IMG/VR virus record: IMGVR_UViG_3300029822_000001
Span: 1-64,000 of that record
Strand: one strand, 5' to 3'
Origin: a virus
Length of the DNA: 64,000 nucleotides
Below are positions 3,481-64,000 of this stretch, piece by piece. Within the stretch, counting starts at the first letter, position 1, and each line of letters opens with the position of its first letter. The position numbers and the translations under genes are program-made. The notes under the pieces were generated by a model. It searched no databases and was not told the origin of the DNA. It was given only the letters and a program-made list of their open reading frames with translations.

Positions 3481-4845
3481 GAAAGTATGCAAGTAAGCAC
3501 GTTCTTTTAAAGACGTGATGAATTGCATTGGCTGTACATCTAGTTAAAAGTAGGGTATACTAAAAAATAGGAGGTGAATAAAATGACGTTAAAGGCTATA
3601 AAAACTAGAATATACCCTAATACTGAACAGCAGTACAAAATAGTTAACACGTTTGGTTGCTGTAGGTTTGTATGGAATCAGTTACTTGATATGCAGATTG
3701 AAAGATATCATAATGGGGGTAAGTTTGTTAATGAGTTTGGTATGAACTACCTGATTGTACAGTTGAAGAAAGAGTATCCCTTTCTTAAGAAAGTAGACTC
3801 AAGAAGTTTATTTCATGTTAGTCGTGACCTAAATAACGCTTTCCAGAAGTTATTTAAGGAACACTCAGGCCATCCTAAGTTTAAATCACGTAAGTTTCCT
3901 AAACAAAGTTATCAATCAAGTTGCATTAAAAATAATATTCGTCAAGTTAGCGAACACAGAATTAAGTTACCTAAGTTAGGTACTATTTACTTTAGGTCGG
4001 GACGTCAGCTTGAGGGTAAGATTAAGAATGTAACTATTAGGTTATCTTCTACTGGAAAGTTCTATGCTGTTGTTTTAATTGATACCGAAGTTAATAGGTT
4101 GGATAGTACTAATCACTCCGTAGGAATTGACATGGGTGTCGCTGATTTAATGATTACTAGTGATGGGGTTAAGTATCCAACCATTAGGTTTGATAAGATT
4201 TTAGCTAATAAGAAGCACTATTGGGAGAAACGGTTAGCTAGAAGACAAGCACAAGCACTTAAAGAGATTGCTTGTGACAAGCATAATAAAGTGATAGAAC
4301 TACGAGAGCTGTCTGACTTCAAGAATTACCTTAAAGCTAAACGTATGGTAGCTAAGTATAGTGAAAAGGTAGCTAATCAAAGAAGTAACTATTTACACAA
4401 CCTAACCAAGCAGTTAGTAGAGCAATATGATGTGATTAAAATAGAAGATTTGAAAACCAAAAATCTTCTTAAGAACCATAAACTTGCTCGGGCAATTTCT
4501 AACCAAGCTTGGCGAGAACTGCGTTCTCAGCTTGAGTACAAATGTGAATGGTACGGTAAACAGTTAGTCACTGTTAATCCTAGAAAAACCAGTCAAATTT
4601 GTAGTACATGTGGGTACGATGATGGTAAGCACACCTTAGATATTAGGCAGTGGACGTGCCCACAGTGTGGCACGCACCATGATAGAGATATTAACGCAGC
4701 AATAAATGTCTTAAAGGCGTAAACGACTAAACTGGGCCGGAACGGCCCTTAGTAAATAGCTGTAACCTCTACTTATTACTATTTAGGCAATAGGCAAGCA
4801 TGCAGTTTTCCTAGAAGCTTCTTACTTTAGTGACGAGTAGTTCAC
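3481..4845 (+). mobile_element. IS200/IS605-family tnpB-only (IS1341-like) element
   Basis: Left-end hairpin CACGTTCTTTTAAAGACGTG 3' of a TTGAC target (3476-3480); tnpB; right-end hairpin preceded by GAAG and ending in TTCAC (4841-4845). Confidence 0.85.
3574..4722 (+). CDS. tnpB: RNA-guided endonuclease TnpB (IS200/IS605 type)
   Basis: HTH N-terminus (RIYPN..Q), RuvC motifs VGIDMG / KIEDL / HDRDINAA, CxxC..CxxC zinc finger. Confidence 0.95.
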   Translation: MNKMTLKAIKTRIYPNTEQQYKIVNTFGCCRFVWNQLLDMQIERYHNGGKFVNEFGMNYLIVQLKKEYPFLKKVDSRSLFHVSRDLNNAFQKLFKEHSGHPKFKSRKFPKQSYQSSCIKNNIRQVSEHRIKLPKLGTIYFRSGRQLEGKIKNVTIRLSSTGKFYAVVLIDTEVNRLDSTNHSVGIDMGVADLMITSDGVKYPTIRFDKILANKKHYWEKRLARRQAQALKEIACDKHNKVIELRELSDFKNYLKAKRMVAKYSEKVANQRSNYLHNLTKQLVEQYDVIKIEDLKTKNLLKNHKLARAISNQAWRELRSQLEYKCEWYGKQLVTVNPRKTSQICSTCGYDDGKHTLDIRQWTCPQCGTHHDRDINAAINVLKA

Positions 4846-4865
4846 CACTTGGGAAAGAACAATGA
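4725..4865 (+). ncRNA. TnpB omega-RNA A (scaffold plus guide CACTTGGGAAAGAACAATGA)
   Basis: Conserved GGGCCGGAACGGCCC hairpin, TAAATAGCTGTAACC and right-end hairpin shared with five other copies; the 5' end may overlap tnpB. Confidence 0.85.
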
Positions 4866-5082
4866 AATTGATGTACCAAAAATGAATCTTCCTAAGGTAC
4901 CTAGTGGTCACAGCTATTCAGTAAAGGTACATAATCCTAGTGGAGAACCTATTACTGTTATGGTACCCGCTATGACTTATGTAGCTAAGAAGGAACATCC
5001 TGTCGTTGAATTTGAAACAGGGGTAGCAAGTTATGGTACCCTAGAAGAAGCCCAAGATAAAAAACTGGAACTAGAAGCTTAA
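4849..5082 (+). CDS. Hypothetical protein, 5' region interrupted by the IS
   Basis: The frame continues through the reconstructed empty site (AAG TTT GAC|CAC TTG GGA). Confidence 0.5.
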   Translation: MGKNNEIDVPKMNLPKVPSGHSYSVKVHNPSGEPITVMVPAMTYVAKKEHPVVEFETGVASYGTLEEAQDKKLELEA

Positions 5083-5090
5083 AGATAGTA

Positions 5091-5790
5091 CAATAAACAT
5101 TGGTCAAGCATGTGAAGATGGGGTAAGCACCCTGCATGTGGCACTTGGTATATAAGTCTTGAATACCTGTGACAAACGATAGTTTTATTAATATTTAGGG
5201 GAGAAAACTCGTTACTTCAGTGACGAGATGAATTCCTTATTATTCTAAATAAATCTCTATTGACAAATATAGGGATTATGGTATACTATAGTTGTTAACG
5301 AAAACCAAGTTAACTAATAAAAGTATATTAACTGGGCCGGAACGGCCCTTAGTAAATAGCTGTAACCTCTACTTATTACTATTTAGGCAATAGGCAAGTA
5401 TGCAGTTTTCCTAGAAGCTTCTTACTTTAGTGACGAGTAGTTCACACATGACTGAATAAGTTGGTTTAGGTAAGCAAAGTACAGTGAAAGCTGGGCCAAT
5501 GATACATATATTATGTTACCTTATGGCGAAAAATAAGCCGTAGTAGCCATGGAGCCGGATAGGCTTTTAGTGCAAACCAGGGATGTTTCAGGGGAGATAA
5601 CCTGACTGTTAGGTACTAACGACATATGAGGTACCGCTAATTGCACAATAGTTATATTAACTCTTCTGTACAAAGACTTAATATACTTGCGGTCGCTGTA
5701 CTATAGACGTATAGTATGTAACTCTTAAGGGTACCAAATTAGAGTATAAACAAGGGTACCCAGCGCTACATATTAGATATAGTATACTAA
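5091..5790 (+). ncRNA. Candidate large structured ncRNA interrupted by an omega-RNA cassette
   Basis: About 440 nt without a long ORF after removing 5189-5445; relatively GC-rich, many hairpins, ends at a terminator. Family not identified. Confidence 0.4.
5189..5445 (+). mobile_element. Non-autonomous IS200/IS605 derivative carrying only a promoter and omega-RNA B
   Basis: TTTAT target (5184-5188); left-end AAAA plus hairpin 19 nt inside; TTGACA(5260)-N16-TATACT; scaffold matches 4731-4845 except 1 nt; ends TTCAC. Confidence 0.9.
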
Positions 5791-5820
5791 AAAGCCCTAT
5801 ATAAAATATAGAGCTTTTTA
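5790..5820. terminator. Bidirectional intrinsic terminator
   Basis: AAAAGCCCTATA...TATAGAGCTTTTT between convergent units. Confidence 0.6.
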
Positions 5821-5835
5821 TTGTACTTTAGTACA

Positions 5836-6354
5836 TTATAACATCTTAATTAAGCTTATAATTCGACTTAGAGAGTATACCCCAGACATAACAACTCCAT
5901 TATCTCGTAGCAAGGTAGGTAACTCTGTCTTAAAACTCTTATTAACATCAAGGTACGGATTAGCATGATTAGGCTTATCAATGTGGTACTGAAGATTCAT
6001 CTTATTATTTTCAGGTAAGCTTACGTATAGGTACCCTTTTGGTAAATCAATTATATCATAAACTTTACCAGTTTCAGAATCAACTTGTCCTAAAAATCTA
6101 GGTAAGCTCAAGTCTCCCAGTTTAGGTGGTTGATTAACTAGCTGTACCAATTGACTTTCAATTGGGTTAGATGGATTGTTTAGCTCTATTGAATAATCCG
6201 TGCAACTATTTGTAGATAAACACTTAAGAGATAGTACCACAAAGTTACGCAGATAGATTGCAAGTTCATGTTTATACTCCTTAATGTTGTCCTGTTTAAG
6301 CCGATTAACTTCTCTATTAAGCTTTGTTGTTTCCTTGTAAGTAACTTTAAACAT
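5836..6354 (-). CDS. Hypothetical protein
   Basis: 172 aa ORF with GGAGG RBS. Confidence 0.6.
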   Translation of the reverse strand: MFKVTYKETTKLNREVNRLKQDNIKEYKHELAIYLRNFVVLSLKCLSTNSCTDYSIELNNPSNPIESQLVQLVNQPPKLGDLSLPRFLGQVDSETGKVYDIIDLPKGYLYVSLPENNKMNLQYHIDKPNHANPYLDVNKSFKTELPTLLRDNGVVMSGVYSLSRIISLIKML

Positions 6355-6361
6355 AGATAAC

Positions 6362-7324
6362 TTACCCCTCCAAATGATGACTTAGCCACTTGTACAGTGC
6401 TATTGCAATTAGTATTAGTACTGAGGTGAATACATAAAAAGCATACTTATAGCTTTGTCCCGGAATAGTAAAGTTAACTCCAAAGTACCCAGTAAATAGT
6501 GTCACAAAGCTGGCAATGATATTTAATATTGTGAAGGTACGCATGTTATTAGTGCTGTTGCTATTCAGGATACCATCTATCAAACTCTCGTAATGGTCTA
6601 AAGAGGTTTTTAAGTACTGAAGCAAGCTCTTAGACTCATCTAGTTCAATGCTGGCTTTTCTAGCAAGCCGGGTATACTCTTTACTATCAAAGTAGCTTTC
6701 ATCTTCAACTATTTGTTTACAGATATCATAGTTTTTATCCAAAGAAGTATCAAAAGATGCCAGGGTACTTTGAATGGACATAATATGGTATCTTACATCA
6801 TTATCCATACTATCTTTAAGTGAACCTTTTAATTCTATGGATTCTTGCTTTAAACTACAAAGTATGTTATTATAGTTGTTAGAAAGATAATAAATCATCA
6901 GAAGTACAATATCTTTTCTATTTGTTGTAGACTCCTTGATACTGCTACTGTTGTTGATAATTTTCTTTATGAATGAAGGTTCCCCATTAGAAACCGTTAT
7001 TAATCTATGGTTACTTGTTAAGCAGATTATTAAAGGGAAAGTATCATACTCCTTGAAGTCACCCAAAACTGATGGGACTGTTTCTGGATATTGTAAAATT
7101 ATTCTTAAGGGGGTATCATCATTAGTTAATCCCTCTATTCGATTGCTATCCTGACTGTCTAAAGTTAGTTTAAGAGAGTCTGAATCTATTCCTGAAGCCT
7201 CAGATAGAGAGTCTAGTTCATCCTTTGAAGGTGTTACTACCTCTACCCAATCGTAGTTATTCGAATCACATTGTATGATTAACCCATCTCGATTAATCTT
7301 GTAGTACTGTTTAATCTTAATCAC
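6362..7324 (-). CDS. corA: CorA-family divalent cation transporter
   Basis: CorA-like soluble domain, MRTFTI..I....T...GYFGVNF signature (GVN in place of GMN), two C-terminal TM helices. Confidence 0.85.
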   Translation of the reverse strand: MIKIKQYYKINRDGLIIQCDSNNYDWVEVVTPSKDELDSLSEASGIDSDSLKLTLDSQDSNRIEGLTNDDTPLRIILQYPETVPSVLGDFKEYDTFPLIICLTSNHRLITVSNGEPSFIKKIINNSSSIKESTTNRKDIVLLMIYYLSNNYNNILCSLKQESIELKGSLKDSMDNDVRYHIMSIQSTLASFDTSLDKNYDICKQIVEDESYFDSKEYTRLARKASIELDESKSLLQYLKTSLDHYESLIDGILNSNSTNNMRTFTILNIIASFVTLFTGYFGVNFTIPGQSYKYAFYVFTSVLILIAIALYKWLSHHLEG

Positions 7325-7376
7325 CCCGTATATAATATATGGATAAATAATAGAACTAAAGGAGATAGAAAAAAGT

Positions 7377-8081
7377 ATGGTTATGGAAAAAGTCGTCGGT
7401 AAGTCTTTAGAAGAAATTGCAAGAGGGTCCCAAATTCTGGATACCCCTTATAACTCAACAATTGTTTACGAACTAGGTACCTTAATTAGAAATGAAATGT
7501 ACTCAGTACACAATGTATCAATTAGTACTAGCAATTCTAGTGGTACTGTATTAGATAAGGGAGAATCCTCCATTGCCTCATCTATTCAAGTAACTATTGA
7601 ACCTAGCAAGATTCGTACTTTTGTACAAGTTCGGGGAATTACTCAACCAGACTTTGTTGCTATGGTTGGTGATATTGTACATTCAGGGATGCTATTTTCA
7701 ACTGAAAATGTAACAATTGACCGGTACAATGTTTCTTCCTTGTACGATGAAGAGTTAACAATTAGTATTGACTTTGCTTATACCAAGGTAACTGACTTTG
7801 ATGGTGGCAAGGATGTATCTAAGAAGAATAGTGAAGTACTAAAGGGGCTTACAGACAAGGTAAACAATCTGTCTGACTTGGTACAAAAAATGGATACTGG
7901 ATTTGGCACAGAAGTGTCTAGCTTAAAGAAACGGGTTGATGCTTTAGATACCCCTAAGGAAGCACTGGACGTACCAGACGCACCAGCTGCAACAGATACC
8001 AAGACAGATGAACCAGCTGAAGTAGAAGGGGAAACATCTCCAGTAACTGAACCAACAGGGGAGACAAGTAGTAGTAACTGA
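7377..8081 (+). CDS. Hypothetical protein, N-terminal part of a gene split by the IS607-like element
   Basis: Joins in frame to 9520-10012 when 8072-9519 is removed. Confidence 0.7.
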   Translation: MVMEKVVGKSLEEIARGSQILDTPYNSTIVYELGTLIRNEMYSVHNVSISTSNSSGTVLDKGESSIASSIQVTIEPSKIRTFVQVRGITQPDFVAMVGDIVHSGMLFSTENVTIDRYNVSSLYDEELTISIDFAYTKVTDFDGGKDVSKKNSEVLKGLTDKVNNLSDLVQKMDTGFGTEVSSLKKRVDALDTPKEALDVPDAPAATDTKTDEPAEVEGETSPVTEPTGETSSSN

Positions 8082-9519
8082 TTATCTATAAAAGCTTGAC
8101 AGATTTTGTAAAATATTATATAATGTTGTTATGTTATATAGAAGGTTATAAAAATAAACATCGAGAAAATATAAAAACAAATTAGGTGGTGATGAGAATG
8201 TTAACCAGCTATAAAGTTGAAATTAACCCTACAAGTCAGCAAGCGTGGTTAATTGATAGACACATATCAGCTAGTCGTTGGGCATACAACTTGTTTTTAG
8301 ACATTAATAAACAACGCTATGAAGATGGCTATCACTACATGGGTGCATACAAGTTTAGCACGTGGTTTAACCATGACTATTTAGATTTTAACCCAGATGA
8401 TAATTGGATTAAGCAACTGTATGCAAAGTCCACAACGCAAGCTTTCATTGATGCTGACAATGCAATGAAAAGGTTCTTTAAAAAACAGAGTAGATACCCA
8501 CATTTTCGTTCATTTAAGTGCGGACAAGGGTCTTTCTACTTTGTTAAGAACAGCAAGAAGCAGATTATCAAAGTAGAACGTCATCGGATTAAGCTTCCTA
8601 AAATCGGTTGGATACGTTTAAAAGAAAAAGGATATATTCCAACCGATGCTGAACATTTTGTGATTAAACAAGGTCGTGTCAAGAAACATGCAGGTAGATA
8701 CTATCTAACATGCCTAGTAAAGCAAGCTGACATTCAGTTCGCTAAACTTAATGGCGACCCAATTGGAATTGATTTAGGCATTAAAGAATTTGCCATTTTA
8801 AGTAATGGAACTATATTTAGCAACAAAAATAAGAGCAGTCGAGTACGAGGGATGCGAAAACGACTTCGGCGACTGCAAAGAAAGTGGTCTCGTCAGTATC
8901 TTGCATTTAAAGCTAGAAAACAGAAAGAAGGGTCTTCTGCTACTGATTTAAATCTAGCCAAAACCGAGCTGAAAATGCAACGATTGTATCAACGTCTTCA
9001 AAACATACAAGCTGACTATCAGAAGAAGATTATTTCACGGGTGGTGAGAACCAAACCACAGTGGGTAGCTTTGGAAGATTTAAACATCGGTGGTCTGATT
9101 AAGAACAAGAATTTAGCTAAAGCGATTATGCAACAAGGACTTTACACGTTTAGAGAAAAGGTAATAAATAAGTGTCAACAACTTGGGATTCCAGTTCACC
9201 TGGCTAATCGGTTTGAACCCACCTCTAAGCGCTGTCATAATTGTGGAACTAGAAAAGTTAACTTGTCCCTAGCTGATAGAATCTATCATTGTGACGTTTG
9301 TGGTTATACTGAAGACAGAGATATCAATGCGTCTTTAAACATTAGAGATACTGAAAACTTTGAGCTTGCCTACTAAATAGGCTTCAAAGTATGTACCGAT
9401 GGCTAGTCGGGAATTTACGCTTGTGGACTGTTATATCAACTGTACTAGCGAGCTTTTAGCGAGGCAGGACAGGCTGAAACAAGAAAAATCTATAACTTTT
9501 TATAAGTTATCAGTAGCAG
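8072..9519 (+). mobile_element. IS607-family tnpB-only element
   Basis: AT-rich left end, tnpB, right end ...TTATCAGTAGCAG|G, AG at both junctions, imperfectly inverted ends; removal restores a reading frame. Confidence 0.75.
8186..9376 (+). CDS. tnpB: RNA-guided endonuclease TnpB (IS607 type)
   Basis: RuvC motifs IGIDLG / ALEDL / EDRDINAS, CHNC..CDVC zinc finger. Confidence 0.93.
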   Translation: MVMRMLTSYKVEINPTSQQAWLIDRHISASRWAYNLFLDINKQRYEDGYHYMGAYKFSTWFNHDYLDFNPDDNWIKQLYAKSTTQAFIDADNAMKRFFKKQSRYPHFRSFKCGQGSFYFVKNSKKQIIKVERHRIKLPKIGWIRLKEKGYIPTDAEHFVIKQGRVKKHAGRYYLTCLVKQADIQFAKLNGDPIGIDLGIKEFAILSNGTIFSNKNKSSRVRGMRKRLRRLQRKWSRQYLAFKARKQKEGSSATDLNLAKTELKMQRLYQRLQNIQADYQKKIISRVVRTKPQWVALEDLNIGGLIKNKNLAKAIMQQGLYTFREKVINKCQQLGIPVHLANRFEPTSKRCHNCGTRKVNLSLADRIYHCDVCGYTEDRDINASLNIRDTENFELAY

Positions 9520-9540
9520 GGTACCAGTGAAGCCTAGTCG
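9385..9540 (+). ncRNA. IS607-type omega-RNA
   Basis: Structured segment (ATGTACCGATGGCTAGTCGGGAATTTACGC...) between the tnpB stop and the right end. Confidence 0.7.
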
Positions 9541-10012: not shown

Positions 10013-10091
10013 TCAATAGTAGTCAGGTACAATAATTGTGCTTGGCTATTTACATACACTGGAAAGTATGATATAATGAAAACATAAGGAG

Positions 10092-11237
10092 GTGAAGATA
10101 ATGACTTTAAAAGGAATTAAATTACGCATTTACCCTAATCAAGAGCAACAGTTGAAGATTAAATTGAACTTTGGCTATAATCGTTTTGTTTGGAACCAAA
10201 TGTTAGGTATGATGATAAAGCGCTACGAGAATAATCCTAAAGCTAAGTTTCTAAACGTATTTGATTTAAATACTCTTTTACCTACTTTAAAGACTGAGTA
10301 TCCTTGGTTAAAGGATGGAATAGCTCAGTCTTATCAGCAGAGTATCAAGGATTTATCTTTAGCTTATAAAAAGTTCTTTAAGGAGCACGCAGGGTTCCCC
10401 AAGTTTAAGTCTCGGAAGTTTCCCAAGCAAAGCTTTAGGATACCCCAAAAGACTAGATTAGTAGATGACCAGTATATTAAATTTACTAAAATCGGTGTTG
10501 TTAGGTTTAAGTATGGTAGAGTAATTAGAGGAAAGATTAAAAACGCTACAATCAAAAAGTCTTTTACTGGTAAGTATTATGCCGTCTTACTAGTAGATAC
10601 CAATATTAAAAAACTACCTAAAACTAAACAGTCAGTTGGCATCGACATGGGAGTAGCAGATTTAATGATTACTAGTGATGGTATTAAGTATCCAACCATT
10701 CGCTTTGATAAGCTTCTTGCTAAAAATAAGCATTATTGGGAGAAACGGTTAGCTCGTAGAAGACCACAAGCTATGAAAGAAATCGCTTGGGACCATCACA
10801 ATAAAGTAATGGAGCCAAGAGAACTATCTGATTTTAAGAACTATCTTAAAGCCAAGTGTATGGTAGCTAAATATAGCGAAAAGATTGCTAATCAGCGTAG
10901 TAACTATCTTCATAATCTAACCAAGCAGTTAGTCGAGCAATACGATGTGATTAAAATTGAAGATTTGAAAACCAAAAATCTTCTTAAGAATCATAAGCTT
11001 GCTCGTGCAATTGCTAATCAAGCATGGCGAGAAATTAGAAGACAGCTGGAATACAAGTGTACCTGGTATGGGAAACAGTTGGTCACTGTGAACCCAAGGA
11101 AAACCAGTCAAATTTGCAGTAACTGCGGATTTGATGATGGTAAGCACACTTTGGATGTTCGCCAGTGGAAATGTCCTAAATGTGGTATGAACCACGACAG
11201 AGATATCAACGCTGCGAAAAACATCTTAGCTGCTTAA
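10092..11237 (+). CDS. tnpB: RNA-guided endonuclease TnpB (IS200/IS605 type)
   Basis: VGIDMG / KIEDL / HDRDINAA intact; C-terminal half nearly identical to 3574-4722. Confidence 0.95.
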   Translation: MKIMTLKGIKLRIYPNQEQQLKIKLNFGYNRFVWNQMLGMMIKRYENNPKAKFLNVFDLNTLLPTLKTEYPWLKDGIAQSYQQSIKDLSLAYKKFFKEHAGFPKFKSRKFPKQSFRIPQKTRLVDDQYIKFTKIGVVRFKYGRVIRGKIKNATIKKSFTGKYYAVLLVDTNIKKLPKTKQSVGIDMGVADLMITSDGIKYPTIRFDKLLAKNKHYWEKRLARRRPQAMKEIAWDHHNKVMEPRELSDFKNYLKAKCMVAKYSEKIANQRSNYLHNLTKQLVEQYDVIKIEDLKTKNLLKNHKLARAIANQAWREIRRQLEYKCTWYGKQLVTVNPRKTSQICSNCGFDDGKHTLDVRQWKCPKCGMNHDRDINAAKNILAA

Positions 11238-11239
11238 CA

Positions 11240-11386
11240 CAAATGACTAAATTGGGCTGGAACAGCCCTTAGTAAATAGCTGTAACCGCTATCTGACATT
11301 CAATGGATGCTAGACAAGTCAGCGGTGTTCCTAGAAACCTGTGGTTTTAACCATGGTGTAGTTCATTGTAAAATGCTACTTAGAAA
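11240..11386 (+). ncRNA. TnpB omega-RNA D (right end TTCAT 11362-11366; guide TGTAAAATGCTACTTAGAAA)
   Basis: GGGCTGGAACAGCCC hairpin, TAAATAGCTGTAACC, GAAA plus right-end hairpin plus TTCAT. Confidence 0.85.
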
Positions 11387-11453
11387 TTAAACGTGGAGAT
11401 GTTGTAAAATGAACTTAGAAATTAAACGTGGAGACATTGTAAAATGCTACTTA
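11366..11453 (+). repeat. About 36-bp tandem repeat (2.5 copies) spanning the omega-RNA guide and the mazF-like start
   Basis: Units start at 11366, 11402 and 11437. Confidence 0.9.
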
Positions 11454-11765
11454 CCTGGTGAAGGAACCAGTCATGTACAAAGTGGTTACCGTCCCGTAGT
11501 GGTTGTACAAAATAATACTGGAAATAAATTTTCTCCTAATACTATTGTGGTACCTTTAACCTCAGAGAACAAGAAGGACATGCCAACTCATAGTAAATTT
11601 GTTATTCATTATGCAGATAGAGAAGATGTTAATAACATTGCTTTGTGTGAAGCATTAACTACCATCCCAATTAGTTCAATTACCAGTAAGGTAGGACATG
11701 TTAATTATAGCAATATGCATAAAATTGAGCAGGCTATTAGAGTTAGTTTGGGGTTGAATGAATAA
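11409..11765 (+). CDS. PemK/MazF-family endoribonuclease toxin
   Basis: IKRGDIV, QSGYRPVVVVQNN.GN..SP..IVVPLTS motif. Confidence 0.9.
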   Translation: MNLEIKRGDIVKCYLPGEGTSHVQSGYRPVVVVQNNTGNKFSPNTIVVPLTSENKKDMPTHSKFVIHYADREDVNNIALCEALTTIPISSITSKVGHVNYSNMHKIEQAIRVSLGLNE

Positions 11766-13537
11766 TGATACTTAAAGTACATACCAATATAACTAGGGTA
11801 GAATTTGACAAGGAAGATGAACTTGAAGCAAAAAGTTTGGAATCCGTTATTCACAAAGGTATTGATGTACTAGACCCTAATAGGTACAATTCCTCAGCCT
11901 TTAGAATACACCATACTTGGGATGGTTATACTAAAATGTACAATTTCAAAGAACACTACTTTCCTAATGGATTGTATGATTTAGCAATCAATGCTTTAAA
12001 AAGCTATCAAAGGAATCATGAGGTATCTTTACGTATTGAGGACCATCGACAGGTACCTATTATTGAACCCTATGAGGCTATTCCTGATGTTCAAAAGGTA
12101 ACCCTTGGTGATAAGACTATTACTCCTAGAGAAGACCAGATTAAGGCTGTTAGGGCAGCATTTGACCAGCAGCGAGGGTTAATTGATAGTGCTACTAACT
12201 CAGGTAAGACTTTAATTGCTTCCTTGATACTTAAATATGCCAACTCCGATGGTAAATTCCTTTTTATTGCCCCTTCGGCTAATGTTATGAATCAGGCAAA
12301 GAAGACTTTTGAAGCTATCACTGGTGAAGAAGTAGGTACTTGGCAGGGAGACCATATAGACATTAAGAGAATAACTTGTGTCATGGCTAAAACCCTTGCT
12401 AACCGATTAAAGGACCCTTCTGCAGGAATAAAGCTAACAGGTAAGCAGGATATTGAGAATAAGCAGATAGCAACTAACTATACTCCTTTGTTTAAGAATG
12501 TACCTAACACACGGCAAGCAGTTTTAAACTACTTTTCTCACTACATTCCAAAGCACAAATATGAGCATGACCAGATTAAAATGATATGTCGGTTTGCTAA
12601 AGAGTGCAATAGCGACCTCAGTATGCAGGCTTATCTTAACCAATTTGATAAGGATTATCATAAGGCTTTATACAAACATGGTAAAAAGAAGTATGACCAA
12701 TACTATTTTGCTAGAGACTATCTGAAAACTGTTACAATAACTATTGTTGATGAGTGTCATAAGGCAGCTTCAGAGGGTTACCAGTCTATATTTAGACACC
12801 TAGATAATTCTCAAATGATGATTGGATTAAGTGGTTCCATTCGTCCTGAACAAGTAACTAGATATCACATGATTAAAGCCTACTTGGGGGTACCTATCAC
12901 TAAGATTCGTAATTATCTCATGATTGAAGAAGGGGTCAGTGCTACTCCTCATATCAAGGAGCTATCTATTAGTGAGCCTAAAGACCTAGATAAATTAGTT
13001 CAACCGGAACTAAGTCAAGGAAAAGCAACGCCACTAAGACAGTATCAATTAGAGTACAAGTATGGTGTTATTGAAAATGACTATCGTAATCGTAAGATTG
13101 CTGAACTAGCTAAAATGTGCTATAACCTAGATAAAGGTGCTTGCCTAATAGTTGTTAATTCAATTGAACATGGGGAACATATTGGTGATATGTTGGAAGA
13201 ACTGGAGGTACCTTATACCTTTCTCAAGGGTAGCGATGATACAGAAACACGTCAAAAAACTTTAGATGCTACTAAAGATGGTACTTTAAGGGTACTATTA
13301 GCGACTAAGATTATTGATGAAGGACTAGATACCCCTAACTTGCAATTTTTGATTTATGCTTCAGCAGGCTCATCACCTATTCAACTGTTACAACGAATTG
13401 GACGTATCCTTCGGCTAGGTAAGAACAAAAAAGATGTTTTTGTTTATGATATTGTTGACAAAACTAGTAAATTCTTGTACAATCAAGCTAAATCTCGTCA
13501 TAAGATATATGTAGAGGAGAAATTTGATATCATTTGA
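11765..13537 (+). CDS. Superfamily 2 DNA helicase
   Basis: ATNSGKT, IVDECH, GLSGS, IIDEGLD, QRIGRILR. Confidence 0.92.
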   Translation: MILKVHTNITRVEFDKEDELEAKSLESVIHKGIDVLDPNRYNSSAFRIHHTWDGYTKMYNFKEHYFPNGLYDLAINALKSYQRNHEVSLRIEDHRQVPIIEPYEAIPDVQKVTLGDKTITPREDQIKAVRAAFDQQRGLIDSATNSGKTLIASLILKYANSDGKFLFIAPSANVMNQAKKTFEAITGEEVGTWQGDHIDIKRITCVMAKTLANRLKDPSAGIKLTGKQDIENKQIATNYTPLFKNVPNTRQAVLNYFSHYIPKHKYEHDQIKMICRFAKECNSDLSMQAYLNQFDKDYHKALYKHGKKKYDQYYFARDYLKTVTITIVDECHKAASEGYQSIFRHLDNSQMMIGLSGSIRPEQVTRYHMIKAYLGVPITKIRNYLMIEEGVSATPHIKELSISEPKDLDKLVQPELSQGKATPLRQYQLEYKYGVIENDYRNRKIAELAKMCYNLDKGACLIVVNSIEHGEHIGDMLEELEVPYTFLKGSDDTETRQKTLDATKDGTLRVLLATKIIDEGLDTPNLQFLIYASAGSSPIQLLQRIGRILRLGKNKKDVFVYDIVDKTSKFLYNQAKSRHKIYVEEKFDII

Positions 13538-13581
13538 TATACTTTCTTTTGAAACATTGCCCGATGTACTCATAAAGAAGC

Positions 13582-13786
13582 TTGACAAATAAATAATATA
13601 TGATATACTATAATTGTTAGCGAAAACCAAGCTAATAAATAAAAAATTATCTAGGTTCGGAACGAACCGTGGTAAATAGCTGTAACCTCTGCATATAGTG
13701 CTAGACACTATTGTGTAAGTATGCAGTGTTCCCAGAAGCTCGGTCATTCATGACCGAGTAGTTCACATCATGAAATAAAAATTTCA
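13582..13786 (+). ncRNA. Stand-alone omega-RNA cassette E (promoter, scaffold, guide ATCATGAAATAAAAATTTCA)
   Basis: TTGACA(13582)-N16-TATACT, GAAAACCAA leader hairpin, scaffold, right end TTCAC at 13762-13766; no tnpB and no left-end hairpin seen. Confidence 0.85.
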
Positions 13787-13833
13787 CACTCCAGCAGCTA
13801 TCTCAAAGGGACTATAAAACTAAGGGTACAAAC

Positions 13834-13866
13834 AAAAAAGGGACCAGGTATCTACTGGTCCCTTTT
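13834..13866 (+). terminator. Intrinsic terminator
   Basis: AAAAAAGGGACCAG-GTATCTA-CTGGTCCCTTTT. Confidence 0.75.
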
Positions 13867-13933
13867 ATATTACCTTTAGAGGTCAAAAGTGTGTTAAACT
13901 AGTAAATAAGATACAATTCAGGGGGCGTTACGT

Positions 13934-14371: not shown

Positions 14372-15122
14372 ATTACATCATCGTAAGTATAAAGAAGTTA
14401 AAGGTATTATTGAGCAACAAGTACCTTTACTACTAGTGGGACCTGCTGGTTCTGGTAAAAATGTGGTACTGGAACAAGTAGCTAAAGATTTAGGGAAAGA
14501 CTTTTATTTTACTAATGCTGTTACTGAAGAGTATAAATTAACTGGGTTTATTGATGCTTCGGGTACCTATCAGGAGACTCAATTTTACCAAGCTTTTACT
14601 AAGGGAGGTATCTTTTTCTTAGACGAAATGGATGCTTCGGTACCAGAGGCTTTAGTTATACTAAATGCTGCAATTGCTAATCGTTACTTTAATTTTCCTA
14701 ATGGTAAAGCTCAAGCACATCCTGATTTTACGGTAGTGGCTGCTGCTAATACAACCGGTAGAGGGGCTGACCAGCAGTATACAGGACGTCATATACTAGA
14801 TGCTGCTACATTGGACAGGTTTGTACTGCTAGACTTTAATTATGATGAAGAACTAGAGAAAAAGCTTAGTGACGATACAGAATTAGTAGAGTTTGTACAG
14901 GCTTGTCGTCATGTACTAGCAGATAAAGAAATAGATTATCCTATCTCTATGAGAGCGGTAGTCAATGGTAGTAAACTTGAAAAGGTGCTAAATACCTTAG
15001 AAATTGTTAACTATGTTGTACTAAAGGGTATGACAACAAGTACCAAACAGCTAATTGCTGCTAACTTAAATGATACAGAAAATAAATACGTAAATGTGCT
15101 TAAAATGTTATTCAAAGAGTAG
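14337..15122 (+). CDS. MoxR/CbbQ/CobS-like AAA+ ATPase
   Basis: GPAGSGK, FFLDEMD, AAANT.G.G, LDAATLDRF. Confidence 0.88.
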   Translation: MYMKATKKMTNELHHRKYKEVKGIIEQQVPLLLVGPAGSGKNVVLEQVAKDLGKDFYFTNAVTEEYKLTGFIDASGTYQETQFYQAFTKGGIFFLDEMDASVPEALVILNAAIANRYFNFPNGKAQAHPDFTVVAAANTTGRGADQQYTGRHILDAATLDRFVLLDFNYDEELEKKLSDDTELVEFVQACRHVLADKEIDYPISMRAVVNGSKLEKVLNTLEIVNYVVLKGMTTSTKQLIAANLNDTENKYVNVLKMLFKE

Positions 15123-15133
15123 TACAGTGTGCT

Positions 15134-15346
15134 TTGGGGGCAGTTATCATGTATATGCTATTTATTAGTCAAGACACAAATAAGCTGTATGCTATCAGGG
15201 AACAGGCGAGTTTAAGCAAGGTTAAAAGCAATGACCCTATTTTAGGTATGTATGATTCCCCTTCTGAGGTACCCTTGCTACTTGATAACTTCTTAGCGGA
15301 AAACCCAGAGGTGACTCTTGATGATACACAAGTTCATTATAAATAA
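15134..15346 (+). CDS. Hypothetical protein
   Basis: Short ORF within the operon. Confidence 0.45.
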   Translation: MGAVIMYMLFISQDTNKLYAIREQASLSKVKSNDPILGMYDSPSEVPLLLDNFLAENPEVTLDDTQVHYK

Positions 15347-16085
15347 CATTAGTGACTTGTACAGCCAGCTAAATGAGACGCCTTTAGTACCTTATGCTTC
15401 CTCTAGGGATACTGATGATAATTCCTGGTATGGTACACCTAACTATGAATCTTCGGTACAGTTACTTAAAAAAGGGGACCAAGCAAGTTTTAATCAAATT
15501 AAGGAAGCACAAGGAAAGTACCAAGTTATGACTAACTTTGATACTAAAAGTAGTACTGTAAGAGACCTTGTTGGTAGTAACCCTTGTGTACCAGCTTATA
15601 TATTAGGTATTCCCAAAAACATGTACCGACATGTACCTGTGTCTAATCCAGTACCCTCAGTAACGTTAGTGTACGACAGAGGGATGGCTAGTCGCTACGA
15701 TTCAGGGGTACTGGCGGATGATGGTGTTTTTATTGCAGAGTATATTAAACAGCTAGAAATACATGGTATAGCTACTAGATTGTACATTGGGGTAAGCTGT
15801 TACTACTATGGTAATTATTACGTTACAATGACTAGATTTAAGGACTATAACGAGAGGATGCTATTGTACCCTTTAGCGTACCCCTTAGTTAACCCCTCTT
15901 TTTTGCGAAGAACTACTTTTCAATTGTATGAGTCTTTACCAGAATTTGTTGTTTTAACCAGTAATGGCTATGGAAAAGATACTCATCATCGAGAACGCAT
16001 AGCTAGTATTAAACAGGTTATTAAAGATAGTAAGGTATTGGTACTTAATCACAATGAAATAACTAGGATGAAAAGTAAAAAATAA
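15318..16085 (+). CDS. Probable vWA/CobT-like partner of the AAA ATPase
   Basis: Adjacent to the MoxR ATPase; CVPAYILG.P..M and LVNPSFLRR motifs. Confidence 0.55.
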   Translation: MMIHKFIINNISDLYSQLNETPLVPYASSRDTDDNSWYGTPNYESSVQLLKKGDQASFNQIKEAQGKYQVMTNFDTKSSTVRDLVGSNPCVPAYILGIPKNMYRHVPVSNPVPSVTLVYDRGMASRYDSGVLADDGVFIAEYIKQLEIHGIATRLYIGVSCYYYGNYYVTMTRFKDYNERMLLYPLAYPLVNPSFLRRTTFQLYESLPEFVVLTSNGYGKDTHHRERIASIKQVIKDSKVLVLNHNEITRMKSKK

Positions 16086-16163
16086 ACTTGACAATGGATA
16101 CTTTAGGTGGTAGTATTTAAGTATACTTTGGTTATGCAAGCTGGTTATCAACCAGTAGTATCT

Positions 16164-16236
16164 GTACCCTTAGCTCAATGGATAGAGCAACAGCCTTCTA
16201 AACTTTAGGTTGTGGGTTAGATACCTACAGAGTGCA
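16164..16236 (+). pseudogene. Degenerate tRNA-Arg(TCT)
   Basis: Intact D arm (TAGCTCAATGGATAGAGC) and loop CTTCTAA, but mispaired anticodon stem and TTAGATA T loop. Confidence 0.65.
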
Positions 16237-16253
16237 TTAACTATAAAAGAAAG

Positions 16254-16769
16254 TTGGAGACTATATTGGACAAGCGTATGGAAGTTAGAAGTACTGCAAA
16301 GATTTATTTGGCAACTCCATGGTTTAACCCAGAACAAAAAGAACGAGTAGGTAAGGCAAGTAGCTTATTATCTTGTAACCCTACAATAGCTATTGTACAT
16401 TTTCCTTTTGACTATCAGTACAAAGATGCAACCATTGATAATCAGGACGGTGTATTTGGTAGCTTAGAATGGCAAGTAGCGACGTACCAAAATGACTTGT
16501 CCGCTATGGGTACTTCAGACTGTGGGGTATTCCTGTACGATTTAGACAATGTGGATGATGGTACGGCCTTTGAAATCGGGTACATGCGTTCTTTAGGAAA
16601 GCCTGCTATCGTAGTTACTTTTTCACATAAGGAAGATGTAAAGGTTAACTTAATGATTGCTAGAGGGGCTACTGCTTTTATTGACGGGGATACTGATTTG
16701 GAACAGTTAGCTAGTTACGATTTCAATCATTTTCCATCTAACCCTGTATGTACACATGAGGTATTCTGA
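16254..16769 (+). CDS. Nucleoside 2-deoxyribosyltransferase
   Basis: IYLATPWF, ND...M, DDGTAFEIGY. Confidence 0.92.
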   Translation: METILDKRMEVRSTAKIYLATPWFNPEQKERVGKASSLLSCNPTIAIVHFPFDYQYKDATIDNQDGVFGSLEWQVATYQNDLSAMGTSDCGVFLYDLDNVDDGTAFEIGYMRSLGKPAIVVTFSHKEDVKVNLMIARGATAFIDGDTDLEQLASYDFNHFPSNPVCTHEVF

Positions 16770-17368
16770 TGGGAAAAATCTTTTATTATTATGGAACAAT
16801 GAAGTCTTCCAAGACTGCTAACCTTTTGATGGTGTACCATAATTATACTGAAAAGGGTATTAAGCCTATTTTAGTTAAGCCACAGTCTGATACTCGTTCA
16901 GGAGAAAAAACAATTGCAAGCCGAGTAGGTATTAGTGAAGAGGCTGACTATGTAATTCCCGGTGATTTATCTGATTACTCTGATTGGGTACATGAACTTG
17001 TTGGGGATGCTTATGATAATAACCGTCCGGTACTAATTGATGAATGCCAATTTTTATCCCCTGTTTTTGTAAACAAGTTGTGTGACTCTGCTGACGGCTT
17101 AACCATTATGGCTTATGGACTATTAACTAATTTTGGGGGCAACCTGTTTGATGGTTCAAAGGCATGGGTTGAACGAACTGATAGTATTAGAGAAATTAAA
17201 ACCATTTGTGACTATTGTGGAAAAAAGGCAACACATAACTTGTTACTGGTAGATGGTAAGCCTACGTTTGATACCTCTAAGGGTGATGTAGTTATTGGAG
17301 ATACTAATTATAAGGTAGTATGCTCAGACCATTGGACTAAATTTAAGGCTGATGAATCCAATAATTAG
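16769..17368 (+). CDS. tdk: Thymidine kinase
   Basis: YGTMKSSKT, DTRSG, LIDECQF, AYGL.T.F, C..C zinc lasso. Confidence 0.93.
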   Translation: MGKIFYYYGTMKSSKTANLLMVYHNYTEKGIKPILVKPQSDTRSGEKTIASRVGISEEADYVIPGDLSDYSDWVHELVGDAYDNNRPVLIDECQFLSPVFVNKLCDSADGLTIMAYGLLTNFGGNLFDGSKAWVERTDSIREIKTICDYCGKKATHNLLLVDGKPTFDTSKGDVVIGDTNYKVVCSDHWTKFKADESNN

Positions 17369-17585
17369 GTACAGAAGGTGTACAACACATAGGATAAGCA
17401 AGGGGAATATTAACATGCTAAGATATTTGTATTATGGGTTGTACTATCTTGTTCTTTCAGTAGTACTACTGTTTGCAGGTATTGTTGGATTAATTGTTAT
17501 AATTCCTGTGTACCACCATTTAAACAAAGGCAACACCTGGTGGCAGTCTTCAAAGTCAGCTGTTTATGACCTTTGGTGGGGGTAA
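17352..17585 (+). CDS. Small membrane protein (probable start at internal MLRYLYY)
   Basis: Hydrophobic stretch; AAGGGG RBS before the internal ATG. Confidence 0.5.
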   Translation: MNPIIRYRRCTTHRISKGNINMLRYLYYGLYYLVLSVVLLFAGIVGLIVIIPVYHHLNKGNTWWQSSKSAVYDLWWG

Positions 17586-17623
17586 CTATGGACTTTAAAG
17601 GATAGGATACTAATAAAAGGATA

Positions 17624-18253
17624 ATGGAGAAATTAATTATGAAAAAATTAACTAAAACTGCTCTTGTACTTGGAACTGCTGGAGTGATTGGACTGGCTGG
17701 ATTTGGTACTTACACTTTGGCGGATGACTTCTGGGCTGGTCATAATAATATGGTTCAAACAAATGCCGACATCGACCAATTGGGTACAATCATTAAAGAC
17801 AAAAGTACTCAACTGACAAAAGCTAAAAGCGATTTAGCGGATGCACAAAAGCAGTTAAAAGATGCTCAAAACAGTCAAGATGGTTTACAGTCTAAGCTGA
17901 CAGATGCACAAAACCAACTCAAGTCTGTACAAGGTCAGCTCAAGCAAGCGCAAGACCAACAGAAATCTGACCAAAATAGTTTCAATCAACAATTACAAAC
18001 TAAGCAACAAGAAATTCAAGAGAAGATTAAGGAAATCCAGCAAGCTATTGCCGACGGAAATCAAAAAGTTGCTGATAAGCAAAAAGAAGTTGACCAAGCC
18101 AATCAACAGATTTCCAATTTGAATAGTAAAATTAACGACCTGACCAATCAAGCCAACTCAAATAATAGAAACAATCAAGACCTTTCTCAAGCTATTCGTG
18201 AAGCACAACAAACACGCGAACATGCAGATAGTGTTCTAAACAGTTCAAAATAG
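17624..18253 (+). CDS. Secreted coiled-coil protein
   Basis: Signal peptide followed by Q/K-rich heptads. Confidence 0.75.
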   Translation: MEKLIMKKLTKTALVLGTAGVIGLAGFGTYTLADDFWAGHNNMVQTNADIDQLGTIIKDKSTQLTKAKSDLADAQKQLKDAQNSQDGLQSKLTDAQNQLKSVQGQLKQAQDQQKSDQNSFNQQLQTKQQEIQEKIKEIQQAIADGNQKVADKQKEVDQANQQISNLNSKINDLTNQANSNNRNNQDLSQAIREAQQTREHADSVLNSSK

Positions 18254-18400
18254 GAAGTAAATATCTTATGTGATTTTTGATGGTTTTGATTGACAAAGTA
18301 GTTCACTAGTGGTACACTGTTTCATGTAGGAGGAAGTAACCTACCAGGTAAACTTGATGATGATTAAGGGGAGTTGGTCACTCCCCCTATACATAATAAT

Positions 18401-18566
18401 GTGGACATTACCCAAGGTTGTTAGGAAAGTCCTTAAAAAAGCGAGGTAAATATACTGAGACCTCTATTAATGTACTATTGTTAACAAGTCTTGTACTTCC
18501 CTTGAAACTCTTGCAAATTTAATAGGGTACGACCCTACTTGTTTGACAAGGGTACAACATCCACCA
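18401..18566 (+). ncRNA. Candidate small RNA with paired ends, terminating in CCA
   Basis: GTGGA/TCCAC and TACCC/GGGTA end-to-end pairing; downstream of a TTGACA promoter near 18291; no ORF. Confidence 0.35.
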
Positions 18567-18759
18567 TGATAGAGATATTAATGCAGCTAAAAATATTCTG
18601 GATACTTCCTTGACAATAGAAAATTAGTGTGGTATACTTATACTGTACCAGAGATTGGTAGTAGTACCAAGTGGTACCTATAAAAATACTAACTAAGAAA
18701 AAGGTTGACAAATAAGTAAAATGTGGTATACTTATTAAGTACTAGAAAGTACCATGTAT

Positions 18760-18911
18760 TGCCTCCAGTAAAATAATCTATTGTGAATATAAACAGGCTT
18801 GTACGATAGGTAAAAAGTGGCGGACGTATATCCTCGCGTGAAGAGATTGTGTGCCTGTTCAAGACTTAGGCAATCCGCAAAGCTACCTCACTTAATTGGT
18901 TACATGGTAGC
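18760..18911 (+). ncRNA. Unidentified pseudoknotted RNA, copy 1
   Basis: Shares TAAACAGG, AAAAAGTGGC, CCTGTTCAAGAC.TAGG and ACTTA.T.GGTTAC blocks plus covarying stems with 20074-20221. Confidence 0.65.
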
Positions 18912-18913
18912 AA

Positions 18914-19030
18914 GAGAAAGTAGCACAAAGGTAGTGCTGTAGGCCGTTGGCCTGTGTAGGTAGTATCTAGTTAGTACATTAGTTGTTAACAGTATAGGTA
19001 CTCATGAGGGTTCGACCCCCTCCTTTCTCT
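18914..19030 (+). tRNA. tRNA-like RNA (GTT/Asn anticodon position) with a roughly 50-nt variable arm
   Basis: Acceptor GAGAAAG/CTTTCTC, D stem GCAC/GTGC, T arm GAGGG-TTCGACC-CCCTC, non-canonical loop CCGTTGG. Confidence 0.6.
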
Positions 19031-19104
19031 ATTTGAGTAAATTGAGTAGGAGTGGTGCAAGTACTTTAATTAACTTATCGTAATCAGCTGGTAAATATGA
19101 AAAG

Positions 19105-19638
19105 GTGGTAAAAAAAATGTCTGATGTTCTTAAATCTAATGTTGAATATAATTATGGTAATTCCATCGAAGCAATGAATCAGATTTTAGCCGATGCGCAT
19201 GTACTTTGGGTTAAAACTCATCAAGCACATTGGTATATGATTAATTCTCGTAATGTGATGTCTGATTTCTTGATTTTACATGATTGGTTAGATAAGCCAC
19301 TTGATTTTCTTATTGATTTAATTGATGATGTTGCCGAAAGAATTGTTATGCTAAATGGTAAACCAGTAGCTACTTTAAAAAACTTTCTTGATTCAACTAC
19401 TCTACAAGAAGAGGATATCGACTACTTTGAGTATAGTTCAGATGAATTATTAAGTAGAACGGTTGCAGACTTCAAAGCATTTAGAGATGAATTATCCAAT
19501 GCCATTAAAATTATGGATAGTGAGGGAAACGTTTCGGATAGTAATAAGCTGCAAGATGATTTAAGTGAGACAAATAAATACATCTGGTTTATGCAGGCAA
19601 CTCTGGGAAGAACAACATTAAACAATAACTTTAACTAG
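19105..19638 (+). CDS. dps: Dps/ferritin-like DNA-protection protein
   Basis: KTHQAHWY, F..LH, D.VAERIV.L.G.P, K.IWF. Confidence 0.9.
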   Translation: MVKKMSDVLKSNVEYNYGNSIEAMNQILADAHVLWVKTHQAHWYMINSRNVMSDFLILHDWLDKPLDFLIDLIDDVAERIVMLNGKPVATLKNFLDSTTLQEEDIDYFEYSSDELLSRTVADFKAFRDELSNAIKIMDSEGNVSDSNKLQDDLSETNKYIWFMQATLGRTTLNNNFN

Positions 19639-19657
19639 TGTACACATATAAAATGTG

Positions 19658-19854
19658 TTGACAAGTTAGTACATTAGTGTTACTATTAAATTGTAATGAA
19701 AACCAAGCTGTCAATAAGTGATACTAAGTTGGCAACATCATGGGCCGGAACGGCCCTTAGTAAATAGCTGTAACCTATGCACGGAGTGCTAGACACTATA
19801 GTGTAAGTAAGTAGCGTTCCTATAAACTCGTTACTTTAGTGACGAGTGTTTCAC
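19658..19854 (+). ncRNA. Stand-alone omega-RNA cassette F abutting tRNA-Gly
   Basis: TTGACA(19658)-N17-TACTAT, GAAAACCAAG leader, scaffold, TTCAC at 19850-19854. Confidence 0.85.
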
Positions 19855-19925
19855 GCGGGTGTGGTGTAGTGGTAACATAGTTGTCTTCCAAACAACTGAC
19901 GCGAGTTCAATTCTCGTTACCCGCT
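19855..19925 (+). tRNA. tRNA-Gly(TCC)
   Basis: Canonical cloverleaf, loop CTTCCAA, T loop TTCAATT. Confidence 0.92.
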
Positions 19926-63851: not shown

Positions 63852-64000
63852 CCTTTCTATGGCTTAATCACGTGAACTACTCGGTCATGAAGGACCAAGC
63901 TTCTGGGAACACTGCTTACTTACACAGTAGTGTCTAGCACTCCATGCAGAGGTTACAGCTATTTACCACGGCTCGTTCCGAACCTAGTTAGTCAATTATT
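63852..64000 (-). ncRNA. Omega-RNA G / IS605-type right end (element continues beyond the window)
   Basis: Scaffold closely similar to cassette E; TTCAC at 63876-63872; guide GTGATTAAGCCATAGAAAGG. Confidence 0.85.

Follow-up and report, generated by a model that had tools for sequence, protein, structure and literature searches.

Protein-free derivatives of TnpB systems have been described in two forms. For the stand-alone omega-RNAs of OMEGA systems, activity in trans has been reported (Altae-Tran et al., 2021, as related in PMC10691335), and the PATEs of Geobacillus stearothermophilus are protein-free IS200/IS605 elements that, according to the passages of PMC10055086 at hand, often encode omega-RNAs needing TnpB in trans (Meers et al., 2023). 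Here, a set of such cassettes is described from a Lactobacillus myophage, the 122,967-bp IMG/VR record IMGVR_UViG_3300029822_000001 (87% complete), the first 64,000 bp of which are referred to as the window. The record carries four omega-RNA scaffolds linked to tnpB and four that stand alone, with no transposase, and this layout recurs in related phages. Since stand-alone omega-RNAs and PATEs have already been described, the core finding is of a known kind, of which this phage is a clear case. The apparently new part seems to be the conserved GAAAACCAA stem-loop, which is kept by guide-only genes and is embedded in tnpB open reading frames (ORFs) in two frames.

The cassettes share with the stand-alone omega-RNAs of OMEGA systems that scaffolds free of effector and transposase lie beside effector-bearing loci. 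They differ from them, as far as these are portrayed in the source at hand, in residing in a lytic-type phage and in having their own promoter and a 5′ stem-loop, with some lacking the left end and one being fused to a tRNA. Two of the cassettes, B and G, are bounded by left and right hairpins like PATE-like elements, whereas E and F have no left end; furthermore, no TnpA is encoded here, and an own promoter and leader hairpin do not appear in the passages of PMC10055086 at hand.

The TnpB of the first full-length element of the window, A, aligns end to end with the ISDra2 TnpB structures (PDB 8H1J and 8EXA; E ~7e-62), and the scaffold resembles that of ISDra2, as presented in the available parts of PMC10097598, in its length of ~120 nt and its several stems. 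The loop GGAAC is complementary to GTTC beside the guide and could, going by the sequence only, form a pseudoknot of the ISDra2 type. Different from ISDra2, the scaffold here begins after the stop codon and does not overlap the ORF.

Solo omega-RNA cassettes and their tnpB-linked counterparts

The interval considered first (positions 3481-19874) is an early-type region rich in consensus sigma-70 promoters and tRNA genes. The closest cultured relative of the phage is Lactobacillus (L. brevis) phage 3-521 of the Herelleviridae, the flanks being 90-95% identical.

For the detection of scaffolds, a covariance model was built from an alignment of the record's eight copies, and it matches exactly eight places in the record with 123.7-152.8 bits, six of them in the window. 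The six scaffolds listed in a preliminary description of the window, which end at 4845 (A), 5445 (B), 11366 (C), 13766 (E), 19854 (F) and, on the minus strand, 63872 (G), were all recovered, and two more were found outside the window, ending at 97452 (H) and 120653 (I), both on the minus strand. A, C, H and I are linked to a tnpB gene; B, E, F and G are protein-free, in agreement with the earlier statement that B, E and F have no tnpB. The copies in the window are located as follows:

4717-4845, plus strand: omega-RNA scaffold A, tnpB-linked, covariance model 136.8 bits, ends TTCAC
5317-5445, plus strand: scaffold B, covariance model 133.4 bits, 98% identical to A
11237-11366, plus strand: scaffold C, tnpB-linked, covariance model 123.7 bits, ends TTCAT
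13637-13766, plus strand: scaffold E, covariance model 149.7 bits
19726-19854, plus strand: scaffold F, covariance model 132.7 bits, ends TTCAC
63872-64000, minus strand: scaffold of mini-element G, covariance model 144.7 bits

The consensus fold comprises 27 pairs, and compensatory changes occur in 13 of them. With 132.7-149.7 bits the solo scaffolds score no worse than the linked copies, and the identity of a solo scaffold to its nearest linked one is 98% for B and A, 88-89% for E and G with H, and 88% for F and I. The predicted RNA of E folds as a 5′ hairpin followed by the scaffold stems (z = -5.1). In the Rfam search of the window, scaffold and leader had no family match, and only tRNAs and RAGATH-18 exceeded the gathering scores; permissive Rfam scans of B and of the gut-phage locus L119 described below gave matches at chance level only.

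The full-length partners in this interval are:

3481-4845, plus strand: element A, IS605/IS1341-type, left boundary from the 3-521 comparison, left-end hairpin at 3498-3517
3584 (ATG) to 4722, plus strand: tnpB A, three TnpB Pfam domains
10057-11366, plus strand: element C without left end, promoter at 10049-10077, tnpB from ATG 10101 to 11237, three TnpB Pfam domains

RuvC and zinc-finger (TNB) domains were found in TnpB A and C, and the motifs GIDMG, IEDL and DRDIN are kept, which we take to carry the catalytic Asp/Glu/Asp residues. As the RuvC motifs are kept in both, these proteins are not of the nuclease-dead, TldR-like kind. Element C has no left end: the sequence shared with 3-521 extends as far as its -35 box, which lies in phage DNA. 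In total, seven tnpB homologues were found in the record, including the one linked to scaffold I, which has two stop codons; three intact genes are cognate to the scaffolds (A, C and H). The earlier count of two TnpBs with intact RuvC motifs therefore applies to A and C, but the interval holds three intact tnpB genes, the third at 8186-9376, and a remnant. Neither a Y1 TnpA (PF01797) nor a serine recombinase (PF00239) was found across the whole 122,967-bp record (87% complete), which extends the absence of TnpA from the window to the record.

The solo cassettes of the interval are organized as follows:

5189-5445, plus strand: mini-element B, protein-free, left-end hairpin at 5208-5227, promoter at 5260-5287, 5′ stem-loop at 5294-5314 (loop 5300-5308)
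13582-13766, plus strand: solo cassette E, no left end, promoter at 13582-13609, 5′ stem-loop at 13614-13638
13836-13866, no strand assigned (minus strand in the scan listing): symmetrical two-way terminator hairpin with T runs on both sides, which would end the E transcript
19658-19854, plus strand: solo cassette F, no left end, promoter at 19658-19686, weakened 5′ stem-loop around the loop at 19698-19706

Each of the four solos is led by a near-consensus sigma-70 promoter, as had been noticed before for B, E and F. It reads TTGACA-16-TATACT in B (5260-5287) and in E, with 11/12 matches to the consensus in both cases, and TTGACA-17-TACTAT in F (10/12), all three with an upstream TG. Left and right subterminal hairpins are both present in B and G, and the left one is absent from E and F, as the preliminary description had it. 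G lies at the window edge, so its stem-loop, promoter and left-end hairpin are located past the window end, up to record position ~64118. No ORF of at least 60 amino acids was found inside B or F. A 110-amino-acid ORF on the minus strand (13415-13747), which overlaps E and the 3′ end of a helicase gene, was judged probably spurious. B is located in a hairpin-rich and ORF-poor stretch (window 5446-5800; see also L041 2050-2438) with a terminator at the end, and the 389 bp that phage 3-521 has in its place are of different sequence.

The origin of the promoters could be traced in related sequences. In the full-length relative L056, the left-end hairpin is followed by TTGACAAATATAG...TATAAT, a tnpB promoter homologous to the solo promoters, and a contig of the RNA library X15 fuses a B-type left part with the -10 box and untranslated region of tnpB C. 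By this homology, the cassette promoter appears to be the element's own tnpB promoter, so that a miniature would consist of the left end (if kept), the tnpB promoter, the hairpin, and the scaffold with the right end.

On balance, we lean towards the reading that B, E, F and G are non-autonomous, PATE-like, guide-only miniatures of the phage's own IS605/IS1341-type elements, which would be loaded into TnpB in trans. Each would have retained its own promoter, the GAAAACCAA 5′ stem-loop and the full scaffold with the right end, and B and G also the left-end hairpin. As the leader stem-loop is the same RNA element as that in the tnpB ORF (see below), a miniature would keep every cis-acting RNA part and lose the protein alone. 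Host RNA polymerase would transcribe each cassette, TnpB from A, C or H would bind the solo scaffold in trans and trim the 5′ leader, and the downstream flank would become the guide. The miniature could then be retained or copied by TnpB-triggered recombination, and its transposition would depend on a TnpA from the host. E and F would have been fixed after loss of the left end, with F co-opted as promoter and leader of a tRNA-Gly gene. Loading in trans fits the anatomy, namely complete, promoter-led solos with folds like those of the linked copies and three intact cognate tnpB genes in the same genome.

Solo cassettes of this kind are frequent in the phage group. The numbers of linked and solo copies are 3 and 5 in G001 (139.8 kb), 2 and 2 plus one weak match in G002, and 2 and 0 in G003; among the cultured phages, 3-521 has a single solo (F only) and no linked copy, and SAC12B a single, decayed solo and no linked copy. 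In G001, two solos without left end lie among clustered tRNA genes, in one case with a tRNA-Ser 170 nt downstream, and in both a consensus -35 box replaces the left-end hairpin arm. For bacteria, a 16-mer scan gave at least 120 stretches, and of 80 loci then searched with the covariance model, 77 were chance matches and 3 were real. The scaffold is present in three Lactobacillaceae genomes, and it adjoins a Y1 TnpA in the Secundilactobacillus and Lentilactobacillus genomes.

A stem-loop shared by solo leaders and tnpB reading frames

The leaders of the solo cassettes contain a 9-nt loop, GAAAACCAA, enclosed by stems that vary yet pair (GTTAAC/GTTAAC, TTAGC/GCTAA and others). According to the preliminary description, the leader is lacking in the tnpB-linked copies. 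This had to be corrected, as the same hairpin is located inside the tnpB ORFs of A and C:

4444-4468, plus strand: stem-loop in tnpB A, arm GAAGATTT, loop GAAAACCAA, arm AAATCTTC, covering the codons EDLKTKNL including the RuvC-II Glu
10959-10983, plus strand: stem-loop in tnpB C with the loop GAAAACCAA, inside the ORF

In the window, GAAAACCAA occurs five times at 0.90 expected copies, a number reached by none of 100 shuffles, and all five copies are on the plus strand within tnpB or omega-RNA contexts. The hairpin was found in 16 of 17 assessable phage solos of this scaffold family (four from this record, nine from related records, and L035, L020, L371 and L039), the exception being L039. 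In all nine solos of G001, G002, 3-521 and SAC12B it stands 17-35 nt before the scaffold. In the three Lactobacillaceae genomes, the 9-mer lies 264-275 nt upstream of the scaffold in six tnpB-linked copies.

The pairing of the stems was analyzed in an alignment of 26 of the 44 distinct 33-mers, from which four ORF rows and 14 others (eight of them with stems of 0-1 bp) were omitted; the invariance of the loop is given by construction in this alignment. For the chosen set, 93.6% of the stem cells pair, compared with 58.8% in shuffles, none of 500 being as high as the actual alignment, and with 30-44% for slid partners. Double changes occur at all six stem pairs.

A synonymous-site scan covered 18 tnpB genes of this family, taken from 23 non-identical ones and sharing 64-82% nucleotide identity with A; L062 was left out, as were copies with more than 97% similarity. 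The deepest trough of the gene coincides with the ORF hairpin, with an observed/expected ratio of 0.18, and the lowest windows elsewhere are at 0.72 or above. L058 and L061 have no motif at the RuvC-II site, L058 carrying a copy of the hairpin ~365 nt upstream, and three tnpB genes of the scanned family hold the motif at both sites. An internal promoter before the ORF hairpin was considered and rejected, as no candidate with at least 9/12 matches is present near 4400-4445, and the TAAAAT at 4437-4442, picked out by eye, would start the RNA within the stem.

The stem-loop also precedes unrelated scaffolds. On the gut-phage contig L119, whose TnpB is ~33% identical to TnpB A, a second, gene-less copy of the contig's own unrelated omega-RNA is led by AATGTAGC-GAAAACCAA-GCTAC. 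Scanning with the L119-type scaffold yielded 135 copies at 89 loci, of which 128 were assessable (21 tnpB-linked and 107 solo, where linked means a CxxC...[DN]RD peptide at most 240 nt upstream and many contigs are near-duplicates). The exact hairpin is present in 56 of these solos, 53-60 nt before the search pattern, and GATAACCAA in a few. On these IMG/VR gut-phage contigs (L281-L369), the scaffold is present in many copies per contig, most of them lacking a tnpB, and often at a spacing of 571 or 959 nt.

By scanning with the 17-mer TAGCGAAAACCAAGCTA, two further cassette types with the same leader could be identified, which brings the gene-less cassettes headed by this hairpin to at least four scaffold types. 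One of them (L370, L374, L377, L385, L390 and L391) combines a left-end hairpin and a promoter with a short scaffold that terminates in GGTAGTTCAC; the other comprises L387, L392, L394 and L398. In four TnpB ORFs the 17-mer encodes V/I-SENQA-I directly before (I/V)EDL or ENL. Among the eight synonymous spellings of the 17-mer, the exact one was counted 94 times and the remaining seven 20 times jointly, and all four TnpB ORF cases have the exact spelling. A search with the L386 TnpB yielded five related loci, too few for a synonymous-site scan in a second lineage.

Bacilli were sampled with one best locus per genome, from 30 of the 42 genomes with matches among 81 searched. In 10 of these 30 tnpB loci, ENQ or DNQ is encoded at the site, always as G-A-N-AAC-CAA with flanking stems of 3-4 bp, and in the locus L447 the exact 9-mer stands at the same place within a 6-bp stem, but in a reading frame shifted by one, giving A-K-T-K. 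The lineages carrying the stem-loop are related, and the counts given here are not independent events. In two other loci (L434 and L435, from the Bacilli genomes G071 and G032; TnpB lineage VRTHPVIAIEDL), a hairpin whose stem measures 9-12 bp and whose loop is GAAAGCCAA was noticed ~95 nt past the RuvC-II Glu codon, possibly as a variant form of the GAAAACCAA element.

The making and control of omega-RNAs are poorly understood. TnpB processes its own mRNA on the 5′ side to give the omega-RNA (Nety et al., 2023; PMC10278001), and the sole control reported is an inhibitory stretch of tnpB mRNA without known sequence basis: nt 825-875 of the AmaTnpB mRNA, beside the RuvC-II site, lower DNA cleavage, also as a separate fragment, and the nature and conservation of this stretch were left as an open question (PMC10278001). 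In tnpB A, with the ATG at 3584 as the starting point, the hairpin described here spans nt 861-885 and overlaps the RuvC-II Glu codon; the two are alike by position only. No motif is named in PMC10278001, and the element described here also heads gene-less cassettes. The literature search retrieved no paper naming the hairpin or the motif together with TnpB, the supplements of Meers 2023, Nety 2023 and Altae-Tran 2021/2023 lying outside its coverage.

Most likely, the hairpin serves the pre-omega-RNA as a signal for regulation or biogenesis. As a tentative proposal going beyond this, the GAAAACCAA stem-loop might be a new, widely conserved cis-element of TnpB/omega-RNA transcripts, read as ENQ or KTK one frame apart, moved within the ORF in some families, and retained as 5′ leader by guide-only genes with four or more types of scaffold. 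It might underlie the mRNA inhibition observed by Nety et al. and act as a switch, keeping the pre-omega-RNA or the RNP inactive as long as TnpB has not trimmed the leader, or alternatively as a loading signal. A motif that occurs in two frames, is under strong synonymous constraint and is retained whenever the protein is lost offers a well-defined target that is simple to mutate. It is also of relevance to genome editing with TnpB: as noted by the authors of PMC10278001, the inhibition would disappear on recoding of the ORF.

The positional match to the inhibitory region of AmaTnpB, which was also active as a separate 125-nt fragment (PMC10278001), leads to a different view of the solo cassettes. 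They might act as a brake or decoy, in which the hairpin supplied in trans damps cleavage by TnpB and, with seven tnpB homologues present, protects the genome against being cut by its own nucleases. Besides being the most constrained part of the tnpB mRNA, the hairpin occurs here in a setting in which self-targeting is a real risk, because another sequence identical to guide C over all 16 nt, preceded by AGACAT, lies at 11438 within a neighbouring MazF/PemK-like gene (11409-11765); in the flank of element C (11367-11453), the 5′ coding part of this gene is repeated in tandem, with a unit of 36 bp and ~2.4 copies. A decoy, however, would need neither the whole scaffold nor the right end. Any identity with the AmaTnpB element is putative. 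Moreover, the authors propose pairing with the omega-RNA, whereas no conserved partner of the loop (TTGGTTTTC-like) was seen in the scaffolds, judged by eye only, GTTTTC occurring in A and B alone. A brake is for these reasons regarded as very unlikely.

Guides, empty alleles and the tRNA-Gly junction

The 16-nt would-be guides following the right ends were compared with phage 3-521, the single close relative covered in the search for targets. Guide A matches at 13 of 16 positions and guide C at 14; guide B is found with 16/16 matches, but behind CACTGGGT, and guide G with 15/16 behind ACGTATAT, the mismatch being at guide position 3. Guide E has no match within three mismatches. An exact guide together with its own left-end flank does not occur in 3-521 for any of A, B, C, E and G. 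For ISDra2, double mismatches in guide positions 1-12 are stated to abolish cleavage in the available part of PMC10097598. The left flank is TTGAC in A and TTTAT-like or TATAA-like in B, G and I, varying with the placement of the boundary, and no single target-adjacent motif (TAM) emerged from the aligned left flanks of about 15 elements. Convincing cleavable targets were thus not seen in the one close relative compared.

The presence or absence of cassettes varies among relatives. G (~250 bp) is absent from 3-521; G and the element at 8063-9519 alone look like simple insertions relative to this phage, and A, B, C and E replace 126, 389, 54 and 531 bp, respectively. In the runs X3 and X15, contigs occur without the 301 bp from 13534 to 13834, to which E belongs.

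These data bear on the idea, put forward in the preliminary description, of a trans-loaded multi-guide system, in which the phage TnpB and the cassette RNAs would cut cassette-free alleles of co-infecting relatives and thereby effect homing or marker exclusion. The anatomy agrees with loading in trans, with multiple intact TnpBs and four promoter-led solo guides, and relatives with cassette-free alleles do exist; guide B is intact over 16 nt in 3-521, guide G over 15 of 16, and homing into co-infecting phages is raised as a possibility in the accessible passages of a review (PMC13565253). The part concerning targets was not supported, as no guide combines a full match with the same upstream flank in 3-521 and guide E is matchless there. 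In addition, A, B, C and E replace DNA instead of being simply inserted, the guides are mere insertion-side DNA as in any IS605 element, and that of F is the 5′ end of a tRNA, all of this with one close cultured relative compared. Use of the cassettes as such a weapon is therefore considered quite improbable, and selfish mini-elements, some of them fixed and co-opted as promoters, are the more economical explanation compared with a multi-guide system run by the phage. The T-even homing endonucleases, e.g., SegB in the tRNA region of T4, are comparable, in the passages of PMC13565253 at hand, with regard to the nuclease-driven spread of DNA between co-infecting phages and to the tRNA region as target. 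In their case the target is recognized by a protein and not by an RNA guide.

Cassette F adjoins a tRNA gene without any intervening base:

19855-19925, plus strand: tRNA-Gly(UCC), first base directly after the TTCAC of F

This junction was found in three lineages, namely in the window, in 3-521 and in the IMG/VR loci L371/L389 (right end at 1447, tRNA from 1448), and the first 16 bases of the tRNA at the junction differ among them. At this same site, the inner scaffold stem is swapped between the window and 3-521. F was probably co-opted as promoter and leader of the tRNA-Gly operon, where RNase P would be expected to part the scaffold from the tRNA. Being present in three phage lineages, the tRNA-fused cassette constitutes a natural guide-scaffold-tRNA junction. 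A second apparent scaffold-tRNA junction, behind the 44%-identical TnpB of 3-521, was rejected, since it represents an ordinary promoter before a tRNA-Thr.

The tRNA junction could alternatively mean that the solos are relics or mobile promoters only, i.e., decaying leftovers of deleted elements, their strong promoters being kept for the tRNA-Gly operon (F) and for a nucleoside deoxyribosyltransferase gene (G), with the scaffold as a gene-converted passenger that is not loaded into any TnpB. Such an origin would account for the conservation of the F junction in three lineages in spite of differing would-be guides, for the scaffold swapping at this site, for the cassettes of 3-521 and SAC12B without a cognate TnpB, and for the G001 solos in the tRNA cluster, in which a -35 box has taken the place of the hairpin arm. 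It does not agree with E, which has only a terminator downstream and would drive no gene, or with the solo scaffold scores, which equal those of the linked copies. Furthermore, a plain promoter needs no hairpin with covarying stems and an invariant loop, and other phage groups show this layout with scaffolds that are unrelated. Relics alone are thus an unlikely explanation.

Several of the observations weigh against the favoured reading of guide-only miniatures served by TnpB in trans. Apart from the missing guide-plus-flank match in 3-521, the F scaffold of this phage still scores well (118.8 bits) alongside a TnpB of just 44% identity, and SAC12B has a decayed cassette (85.9 bits) with no TnpB at all. 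The guide of F would consist of the 5′ bases of the tRNA, which RNase P would be expected to remove. The closeness of solo and linked scaffolds may stem from gene conversion or recent origin and not from selection, and four solo or degenerate copies in bacterial genomes do not have the layout of promoter plus hairpin. The contigs of the RNA libraries X15 and X16 cover 28/30 and 27/30 bins of the 17-kb stretch, including those of B, E and F; spanning nearly all of it and showing no starts, they may hold carried-over DNA and are thus no evidence for transcription.

Further TnpB elements in the record

Two more TnpB-related features are located in the interval:

8063-9519, plus strand: third TnpB element, of another family, with an intact tnpB at 8186-9376 and RAGATH-18 (Rfam) at 9420-9485 in the right end
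18553-18605 (approximately), plus strand: tnpB 3′ remnant encoding HHDRDINAAKNIL; its homologue in 3-521 is the terminal part of the tnpB with 44% identity

The TnpB of the third element is 27% identical to TnpB A, and a clean empty site of this element exists in phage 3-521 as well as in a contig of X16. The RAGATH-18 at 9420-9485 looks like a part of the omega-RNA of this element. The remnant is followed by two consensus promoters (18610 and 18705) in the tRNA region. Outside the window, element H (record positions 97452-98861, minus strand) has an intact tnpB, and its left flank is nearly a copy of its right-end flank, with two mismatches in 16 nt, which is unusual for an IS605-type insertion.

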